From: a virus
Taxonomy: Duplodnaviria > Heunggongvirae > Uroviricota > Caudoviricetes
DNA length: 18,943 nt
Virus record (IMG/VR): IMGVR_UViG_2529293214_000009
Direction: 5' to 3' (one strand)
Shown here: piece after piece, positions 12,001 to 15,000 of the stretch
Position numbering within the stretch: position 1 is the first letter of the stretch
How the letters are laid out: every line of letters starts with the position of its first letter
Position numbers: made by a program

Positions 12001-15000
12001 GGTTTTACTTTGGTATCACCACCGCCTTTACTTCCACCCATAATGGCCCCCTGGATAACAAAAAACCCTGCCGGAGCAGGGTCAGAATGTGAATTACAAT
12101 GTTGGTTTAAACACAATGATGAAAACTGTAGCAGTCAGACCGCTATCCTGAACACCATGAAGCCATCCTCATCATCCGGCATTCGCTCAAAGCCCAGTCG
12201 TTTTCCCAGCCGGATAAATCCCCGCCTTGCCGTATGGAACTCAGCCCAGCGTCCGCCAGCCAGATGGGTTAATGTCTTCACCTCCGGCAGGTAACGCTCA
12301 ACGCTGTTACTCCCCGTACACACGCCCAGCAACACCAGAACATAAGGGATACCATCAGCACTGAGCACAGAACGCAGCACCAAAAAGCCATCAGGTGCCT
12401 CAAAACAAAACGCCTGCTTTTTAAGGCAGGCGTCTTTAACTTCATTCATAAATTCAGGGTTGCGGGAATTTCTCACAACACGCTGCATATACCAGAGAAT
12501 TTTATCGTTCATTCTCTCACCTGAAACGGGTGCCATATCGGCTGAACCTCAGCAACCAGTTGACGGGGACTCTCGTCCCCGTCGCGGTTTTCCTACTGCT
12601 TACACTGTAAGAACGCCGCAAACTCCGCTCCCCACAAATTCAGCCGGAACTCACACAGTGAACCGTGCAACATCCAGATGGTGAAGATAACCGTCATGCA
12701 AATTGTGACGGTGATAAGCGATTTTTGCGACATAGCGCTTGACTCCTTTTACAGAGAGGCGCTAACCTTCTACTTGCTTAAGGTACGAAGTGTTAGGGCC
12801 TCGGGTTAACGTTAAGTTGACTCGGGGCCTTTCCACATCAGGCCTTCAGGTTCACCCTCCAGCCATCAGCCGAAAGGCACCCACGCATAATTTACGGTTT
12901 TTGCCCTGTACGGGCAATAAAAAACCCGCCATCACAGCGGGTAGTAAACGGTTACCGGATACAGGTCAGAATTTCAGGCCAATGCCAGCAGTAACGCCAC
13001 TCGTGCGCCAGTCGCCAGAGCCGGAACCTTCGTAAGCCACATCCAGTGTAACACTCTCATTCAGGTTAAACTGTGCACCTGCAGCCCACGCAAGGGAGGT
13101 TTTTTTCGTGCTGTTGCTTTCAGAAAATCCGCCACTACTGTTAATATTGTCCTTAATTTTCAGGTCAGCGCTAACTTTAGCAACGCCCATCCCTGCCATC
13201 GCATATAAACTCATGTACTGATTAACCCGCCATGAAGGCCCCGCTAACAGACTCCAGTAATTCGCCCTGATATCCGTTCTGGCAGAAGCTGCCGGATTCT
13301 TAATCTTCCTGGTATGATCGGCTGACTGCACATCAATAAATGTCTGTGAGTTAGTGAGAGAACGCGTCCATGTAAAAGAGGTGATAACGCCAAAATCATC
13401 CGTTATCTCGTAGCGATACCTGATATTAATGCCCTGTGGATTTTTATCCTTGCCTTCATATCCACTGACCCGACCATCTGTATATTCGCCCAATGAAGAA
13501 AAGTAGTTTCTGTTGACGAAATGACTGAAAGTCTCCCTGTTATGAGCAGTCGCATCCTTTACAAAATCCTTCAGTCCCGGAAACTGAAAGTGCGCATACC
13601 CCAGAGAAATTGTATGCTCTCCTTCTGCTGCATGTGCAGATAAATTTACACAGGCAATCCCGGAGATTGCACACACAACCAGTGTTGCTATACTCTTCAT
13701 TTAAGATATCCTGTATTCAGATAACACGCTAAACTTTTTAATAATACATCTTTTTAGACATTTTAAATGAATATTAAAGACTCGCTTCAACTAATCATAT
13801 ACTGATGTATTAATAACCAGGACCTTATCTATATACGGCTTTCGAATATCCCATGTTGCACCACCGGAATAATGCTCACAGGAATATATTTTATTTCCTG
13901 TAGCACCAGTGGATGTGGTATAAATCGGTCGATCATAAGGAGTTCTTTTCCAGTTATAATACCCGACCAGTGCAGGCATGATTGCGCATGGATATCCAAG
14001 GTCCTTTTCAAATTTGATATCAACAGGTATTAACTTCGCGTCAAGCAGCATCATTTCGCCATGATAAATCATCTCACCGTCCGGGTTATACATGGCGATA
14101 CCATACTCAGAAGGTGGAGTAACCATATTCGCGAAAGCATAAACCGTCGTAACACCAGGGTTCGTTCCCCTGACAATTACATGAAGCCTTAGTGCATGAT
14201 ATCCATCAATCTGTTCATGCGTGTACATGACATCGGCCTTCTTCTCTGTTCTGATAAAGAAAAAACAACTTTTGCCTGACGGGATTGATGTTTTAAAAAA
14301 AGACTTTTCAGTCGCCGGTATGGTGCCTTTGTTGATCAGACACTGCGGCGTAAAACCTGGACTTATCCATACGCTGCCATCCGGCTTCATAATGCTCAAA
14401 CCGTACATAACACTTATCCCCAGAATGTATAAATATAAGATCCCATACCCTGCTCAAGATTCGACCACGTCACCGTATTGTCATTAATGGTTATCTTCGG
14501 TACTTTCCGATCCGCAAATACATTATTCCAGGGAAATAAACAACATACAGCCTGCAATGATTTCCCGTCGGGTTTATTAGTGTACGTCTTTGAGCCAGAC
14601 TCCGCTGTAAATCTGTCCAGGAAAAATACTGGAGTCAGCACGCCCGTAACATTAACGTTATTTCTGTTATAAATGGCAAAACCGTATTCCAATACTCACC
14701 TCCTGATCAGCGTAATCTGCCTATGCGAACAGCCAGTCGTCCATTCTGGTCATAAACCTCAATTTTATCATTGCGGATCACCAGTCCTACATTCTGATTA
14801 GAGTAACGAATTGTCAGTTGCCCTTGTGACGTAACACTGAAAAGGCCTCCAATATTCAGGTTACCCTGAGAATCAACCTGAAAGTTTCCGTTCTGAATAA
14901 CGGCACTCCGGATAACTGGCGAAGTGATACTTACCCCGGCTTTTACCTCATCCGCCACAACCTTCCGCGACACCAGTGTTTCAATCACCGCGTCATAAAT

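Follow-up and report, generated by a model that had tools for sequence, protein, structure and literature searches.

Moron genes are reportedly a concept of Hendrix and colleagues, with those of phages HK97 and HK022 among them, and the phage λ bor gene is said to be another lambdoid moron. Lambdoid morons are accessory genes lying among the essential late genes; they have an AT-rich spacer and a terminator of their own, are expressed in the lysogen, and are exchanged as sharp-edged cassettes. The lom gene of the Shiga toxin (Stx) phage 933W, analyzed here, resembles them in all of these features and differs from typical morons in that no relative without lom was found (below) and a second item of cargo, a hok/sok module, abuts its terminator. 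Among the closest known relatives of its product, LomW, is the λ Lom protein (206 amino acids (AAs); PHROG 108; chain C of Protein Data Bank (PDB) entry 9wso), a barrel of the same family. Its gene, too, belongs to the late operon of a temperate phage, comes shortly after a J-type tail-tip gene and is directly followed by an intrinsic terminator of its own. The λ protein is expressed in lysogens (PMC12366544), and citing papers connect it with buccal-cell adhesion. The DNA studied here, called the window below, is the whole 18,943-nucleotide (nt) stretch of IMG/VR virus record IMGVR_UViG_2529293214_000009. Its ATG-to-TGA open reading frame (ORF) at 12966..13700 (− strand) is lom of phage 933W, and it encodes a 244-AA precursor of a predicted eight-stranded outer-membrane β-barrel protein of the Ail/Lom family. 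We think it very probable that LomW is lysogenic-conversion cargo carried within the late operon, an outer-membrane barrel that is expressed in the lysogen apart from the lytic cascade.

Over the 1.3 kb around 12966–13700 the sequence is 100% identical to that of the Stx2 phage 933W, of VT2-Sakai and of many further Stx-converting phages; the corresponding prophages in the E. coli O157:H7 strains EDL933 and Sakai match it equally. Relative to 933W, the window shows the late region as its reverse complement (coordinates in the window are those of our locus L001 minus 301), and its large genes all run along the − strand as members of the late (virion) operon. A Shine-Dalgarno sequence, AGGA, is present at 13709–13712, eight bases 5′ of the lom start codon. 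In 933W the ORF bears the annotation "lom, outer membrane protein Lom precursor"; EDL933 has it as "Ail/Lom family outer membrane beta-barrel protein", and it is locus ECs1236 in Sakai. The Lom/Ail-family gene that the initial annotation had placed here from the sequence alone is thus this exact ORF, and matches to Pfam Ail_Lom and PHROG 108 (below) agree. The gene is already known: it was annotated in 1999 with the 933W genome, its expression in the lysogen has been measured in phage φ24B, and LomW is a published vaccine antigen of enterohaemorrhagic E. coli (EHEC). The value of the present analysis as discovery is accordingly small, and its additions are modest ones, namely an enlarged first loop with a predicted helix, an allele-swapping slot with a fixed terminator, a question about the promoter, and a hok/sok module adjoining the terminator.

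The 933W locus is not arranged exactly as that of λ. Phage 933W is a short-tailed member of the Sepvirinae, whereas λ is a λ-type siphovirus; in λ the order is J and then lom, whereas in 933W the two small genes L0126 and L0127 stand between the tail-tip gene and lom. In addition, λ has terminator-like hairpins both after J and after lom (positions 3921–3936 and 4613–4634 of our locus L004), whereas only the downstream one is present in 933W.

The expression of lom can be judged from phage φ24B, in which lom and the 90 bp upstream of it are 100% identical to the window. By quantitative PCR (qPCR) the φ24B lom gene is strongly expressed in the lysogen and is expressed at the same level upon induction (PMC3342100). 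In an RNA sequencing (RNA-seq) study of norfloxacin induction its transcripts rose 3.0-fold, a change that is not significant (P = 0.14), while L0124 rose 22.3-fold, L0125 15.5-fold, L0126 15.8-fold and L0127 15.7-fold; for comparison, cI and bor rose 1.2-fold and 1.4-fold, respectively, and the genes downstream of lom 5.6–8.3-fold (PMC4651098). Unlike L0126 and L0127, lom does not show the pattern of a late gene; it therefore receives transcription in the lysogen that it does not share with them, and a promoter should lie between L0127 and lom. In strain Sakai, lomW rises by 2.2 log2 units as the cells enter stationary phase, alone among its neighbours (PMC2241611). The claim of expression from lysogens is borne out, for lom mRNA, by the φ24B qPCR and RNA-seq data, and there is good support for lom expression being independent of the lytic cascade. 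The ratio of induction falls from about 16-fold 5′ of lom to 5.6–8.3-fold past the terminator and the hok module (11385–12536 and the genes downstream); partial termination, or a basal level of transcription running on from the hok promoter, might explain the lower ratios.

That lom is a plain late gene transcribed from pR′, with no expression in the lysogen state and with a downstream hairpin that is incidental or belongs to the hok module, is extremely improbable. Its position inside the late operon in the same orientation, and a set of mapped transcription starts that has none for lom (below), would be in keeping with this, but expression in the uninduced lysogen by both qPCR and RNA-seq, where induction brings a 3-fold rise that is not significant, stands against it. 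So does the hairpin itself, which is canonical and perfectly conserved, and the homology of the hok module with other prophages stops at about position 12902, short of it.

This hairpin is the lom intrinsic terminator at 12915..12942 (− strand), with the stem-loop ACCCGCTGTGATGGCGGGT (12942–12924) followed by TTTTTTATT. A terminator scan gives it an 8-pair stem with five G-C pairs and a T-run, 24 nt past the stop codon, and the fold of the RNA from 12905–12968 has a free energy of −23.4 kcal/mol (z = −3.1). Five relatives carry the same stem, loop and T-run (as far as the sixth T) although their lom alleles are only 70–95% identical, so the terminator claimed for lom in the initial annotation is present and kept. 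The AT-rich upstream region claimed there is also real: the spacer from the L0127 stop codon to the lom start (13701..13790, − strand) is 90 bp long and has a GC content of 24%, against 51% for the whole window. We infer the position of the lom promoter from the expression data, and this spacer probably contains it. The RNA fold of the spacer shows no structure above chance (z = −0.04), and Rfam searches of the whole window at gathering thresholds gave no match.

A number of observations weigh against reading lom as an independently expressed moron of this kind. The spacer contains weak promoter-like hexamers, TTGAAG-19-TAAAAT (13790–13760), found with a lenient position weight matrix (PWM), but the best PWM score in the spacer is equalled by 143 of 500 shuffled sequences (29%), and a strict σ70 scan finds no − strand promoter in the spacer; PWM promoter scores in the spacers of other lom alleles are no better. 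We claim no promoter from the sequence, because these hexamers are no better than chance. The tables of a Cappable-seq study of EDL933 in eight conditions (PMC10469882; window position = 1391876 minus record position) contain no gene, internal or antisense start for lom, although just 2,987 genes receive a gene start site in that work, and so the missing entry is weak evidence. The same tables place internal starts at window positions 14513 and 14234, upstream of lom. Low GC content is not peculiar to lom (46%), since its neighbours L0126 (41%) and L0127 (42%) share it. In a search for relatives without lom, every one of 186 phage records covering the locus proved to contain the gene; the pattern of presence in some genomes and absence from others that is classical for a moron is therefore missing. 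Finally, the authors of the LomW vaccine work state that neither what LomW does nor whether it is present in the outer membrane has been characterized (PMC6692519). "Independently transcribed", as the initial annotation put it, fits the terminator and the φ24B qPCR and RNA-seq results, whereas neither the promoter scans nor the Cappable-seq data show a promoter belonging to lom itself. Two public data sets, the φ24B RNA-seq and the EDL933 Cappable-seq, thus disagree on the lom promoter.

The Cappable-seq data bring in a possible, though rather doubtful, alternative, in which a low-GC unit of three genes, L0126-L0127-lom, ends with lom and is transcribed in the lysogen from a start at 14756 to the lom terminator, and the spacer serves merely in translation initiation or regulation. 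The start at 14756 (record position 1377120; feature 14756..14770, − strand) was mapped in all eight conditions, and an extended −10 box, TGaTAAAAT (14770–14762), lies 6 nt upstream of it; it is within the 3′ end of the tail-tip gene L0125, 64 nt upstream of L0126. With the internal starts at 14513 and 14234 and none for lom, and with low GC common to all three genes, such a unit has some appeal. A terminator scan of the − strand finds none between 14756 and 13701, so this start is a possible extra source of lom transcripts. It is stronger in stationary phase (RRS 4.6–9.2 versus 1.9–4.0; PMC10469882), which the stationary-phase rise of lomW in Sakai parallels. However, a shared unit does not fit the induction ratios of 15.8 and 15.7 for L0126 and L0127 versus 3.0 for lom, which indicate lysogen transcription that is not shared; growth-phase regulation is listed for ECs1236 only, not for ECs1234 or ECs1235; and every lom allele has its own unrelated AT-rich spacer of 79–146 nt, which a gene internal to an operon would not need. 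We take 14756 to be a constitutive internal promoter that drives L0126, L0127 and possibly lom.

L0126 and L0127 themselves, which separate lom from the J-like gene, form a low-GC pair (13791–14692, − strand). The L0126 protein (92 AAs) matches PHROG 557, "outer membrane protein", and has no signal peptide; it has been described as Ig-like (PMC12309495). The L0127 protein (205 AAs) matches PHROG 425, "membrane associated protein".

Comparison with relatives supports the reading of lom as exchangeable cargo. We compared five diverged Sepvirinae loci, those of PhiR12_3, Stx2_131990, Stx2_8243, GER2 and POCJ13, in all of which the flanking genes are 91–99% identical to those of the window (85–99% if L0126 is included). 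The lom alleles of four of these are 70–75% identical to that of the window and that of POCJ13 is 95% identical; the lom spacers are only 30–42% identical and effectively unalignable, that of POCJ13 included. The edges of the exchanged cassette are sharp and fall at the L0127 stop codon and at the bases just before the terminator hairpin. Synonymous divergence (dS) is 0.84–1.63 in lom versus 0.17–0.67 in the flanks, and the ratio of nonsynonymous to synonymous divergence (dN/dS) in lom is 0.12–0.23. Because dS is high and dN/dS is low, the lom alleles appear to be old, to be under purifying selection and to have been recombined into the locus rather than to have evolved rapidly in place. The lom allele and the tail-tip gene next to it do not vary together: at locus L007 the 3′ end of L0125 is 100% identical to that of the window and lom is 71% identical. 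In the virulent phage JenP2 an L0126-L0127 pair is present beside the J gene, on the opposite strand, without lom. The presence of many divergent lom alleles, with upstream regions of their own, in one slot of the Stx phages bears on vaccine coverage. The call of lysogenic-conversion cargo made in the initial annotation is supported by the spacer, the terminator and the lysogen expression data together.

The LomW protein belongs to the Ail/Lom family. It matches Pfam Ail_Lom (PF06316) with E = 1.5e-32 and 113.4 bits (cut-off 23), over LomW residues 88–244 and profile positions 48–199 of 199, and PHROG 108, "Lom outer membrane protein", with E = 2e-79 over residues 1–244 and profile positions 1–199. 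Sequence matches in the PDB include λ Lom (9wso_C, 3e-24), Yersinia pestis Ail (6e-20) and OmpX; the Pfam and PDB matches begin only at LomW residues 73–88. Alignment with λ Lom and Ail had been proposed in the initial annotation, and beside the Ail match BLASTP finds 36% identity with λ Lom over the C-terminal 163 residues. In a MAFFT alignment of 31 sequences including λ Lom (alignment A1), LomW aligns throughout, from the signal peptide and strand 1 to the last of its eight strands; the C-terminus YEGSGSGDWRT...KF is invariant, including Phe244 (LomW ends in ...GIGLKF), and loop 4 and the C-terminal motif YEGSGSGDWRT...GxGxKF are identical in LomW and λ Lom. Salmonella Rck and PagC and E. 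coli OmpX have the Pfam family and the fold in common with LomW. The LomW scores for NCBIfam Rck (NF011777; 99.3 bits, equivalog cut-off 258) and OmpX (NF006917; 68.3 bits, cut-off 176) are far under the equivalog cut-offs, and LomW is therefore not an orthologue of either.

An AlphaFold2 model of LomW, built from a 37-sequence alignment, has a predicted local distance difference test (pLDDT) score of 86 and a predicted template-modelling (TM) score of 0.74, and places barrel strands at residues 29–39, 89–98, 103–126, 138–158, 163–184, 191–212, 217–226 and 233–243. Foldseek searches with the model give Ail (3qra) as the best match (E = 2e-15; TM score 0.81–0.84 normalized to the target), and OmpX (1qj9) matches with a TM score of 0.86 on the target. 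By this model the barrel is complete, with eight strands. A truncated barrel or a spurious C-terminal match, which the initial annotation had named as what would overturn it, is ruled out by the eight aligned and modelled strands, and the Foldseek and BLASTP results agree. A predicted Sec signal peptide and a C-terminal aromatic residue, the signal for the β-barrel assembly machinery (BAM), can both be read in the sequence. The signal peptide comprises residues 1–24 (13629..13700, − strand; MKSIATLVVCAISGIACVNLSAHA, followed by AEGE) with an A-H-A motif at the putative cleavage site; Ala24 is invariant among the 31 homologues, and residues 1–23 are modelled as a helix with low pLDDT. LomW was also considered as a lipoprotein, which was ruled out: it has no lipobox, and the Cys residues of its signal peptide are not conserved.

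The main difference between LomW and λ Lom is in the loops. Extracellular loop 1 (L1; residues 40–88; 13437..13583, − strand) is about 40 residues longer in LomW by alignment A1 and the AlphaFold2 model, and A1 shows loop 2 (L2) to be about 12 residues longer and loop 3 (L3) shorter, the two precursors being 244 and 206 AAs long. L1 contains a predicted helix (41–66) and an extra strand (73–81), and the block has pLDDT values of 82–91. The L1 insertion is common to homologues P0001–P0025, which are 43–99% identical to LomW, and judging by these sequences it marks a long-loop Lom subfamily of 240–250 AAs. Within the subfamily L1–L3 are the most variable parts, with an entropy of 1.45–1.89 versus 0.5–1.05 for the strands and 0.33 for loop 4 (L4). 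L1, so much larger than in λ Lom, is the natural candidate for a functional epitope. Yersinia Ail (3qra/3qrc), which is the best structural match at 30% identity, is likewise an eight-stranded barrel with long protruding strands; it differs in being chromosomal and in having short loops without the L1 insertion.

The initial annotation had also mentioned links of the family to adhesion and serum resistance. Sera against LomW lower the adherence of EHEC to Caco-2 cells and are bactericidal with complement, and vaccination with LomW reduces colonization (PMC6692519, PMC5003871). By analogy with other family members, the LomW loops most likely mediate a host-related surface function, and adhesion or serum resistance may be part of it. 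The loop residues with which Ail binds heparin and complement regulators and mediates adhesion are not conserved in LomW, as seen without a dedicated test of this point, and a serum-resistance function cannot be transferred to LomW from Rck, PagC or OmpX by homology.

It has to be asked whether LomW, as an outer-membrane protein whose gene is a neighbour of the receptor-binding genes, is instead directed mainly at phages, blocking the adsorption of the same or related phages either as superinfection exclusion or so as to spare progeny from lysing cells and debris. Over-expressed λ Lom is a strong and λ-specific defence against λ-vir, but at its native levels it leaves a λ lysogen unprotected from the same phage (PMC12366544). 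In both λ and 933W lom follows a J-type tail-tip gene (in 933W this is L0125, with matches to Phage_Tail_Tip of Pfam and to PHROG 31, "central tail fiber J", and lom is two small genes further on), but the failure of the lom allele to co-vary with the adjacent tail-tip gene at L007 (71% versus 100%) is not what this idea would lead one to expect. LomW peptides have been found in φ24B virion preparations, where they were classed as contaminants (bioRxiv 10.64898/2026.04.10.717836). On the other hand φ24B, whose lom is identical, is noted for infecting its own lysogens multiply and at high frequency (PMC3430580), and PADLOC gives no match for Lom or its neighbours. On balance we regard a mainly phage-directed role as unlikely. 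More improbable still is that the long-loop LomW subfamily, which is found in the short-tailed Stx phages and related prophages, has a function distinct from that of λ Lom, for example as an anti-adsorption or decoy factor for the phages of this group, whose target is BamA, or as an adhesin whose L1 helix binds a host ligand; if this were true, the frequent replacement of alleles at a fixed slot would reflect an arms race. The PDB entry 9wso contains a λ Lom structure with two Lom chains and might bear on the binding partner of Lom; λ J and both Stf parts were searched for among its chains and neither is in the entry, and a search found no paper on 9wso.

In the scheme that we prefer, with LomW as lysogenic-conversion cargo, lom would be transcribed in the lysogen independently of the lytic cascade, and its terminator would keep these lysogen transcripts from running on into the hok toxin module and the virion genes downstream. 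During lytic growth Q-antiterminated late transcription would pass the terminator. Removal of the Sec signal peptide would leave a mature protein of about 220 AAs, which BAM would insert into the outer membrane of the host as an eight-stranded barrel of the Ail/OmpX type. In the topology that we infer, the long and variable loops L1–L3 would face outward, with L1 enlarged by its predicted helix and L4 invariant, and these surface loops most likely serve host-related roles, for instance adhesion or the evasion of complement, like those of other family members.

A complete hok/sok-type toxin-antitoxin module is present directly after the lom terminator (12560–12917, − strand). Its Hok ORF (12593–12733, − strand) encodes 46 AAs and matches Pfam HOK_GEF (33 bits) and PHROG 251 (MokW-like), and there is a sub-threshold Rfam match to sok at 12882–12720 (− strand; 35.6 bits, E = 2e-6). 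The promoter of the module, TTGCCC-17-TAAATT (12917–12889, − strand), begins right after the T-run of the lom terminator, and the hok start mapped by Cappable-seq (record position 1378994; PMC10469882) falls at window position 12882, the exact 5′ end of the sok match. The module is absent from the 1999 annotation of 933W and is annotated by PGAP, and it is also found, at about 81% identity, in unrelated prophages. Further downstream in the same operon is a giant ORF of 2,806 AAs (948–9368, − strand), which is L0134 of 933W and is called "LPD38 domain-containing protein" by PGAP; Riley et al. reported that it is expressed on induction (clone CM7).

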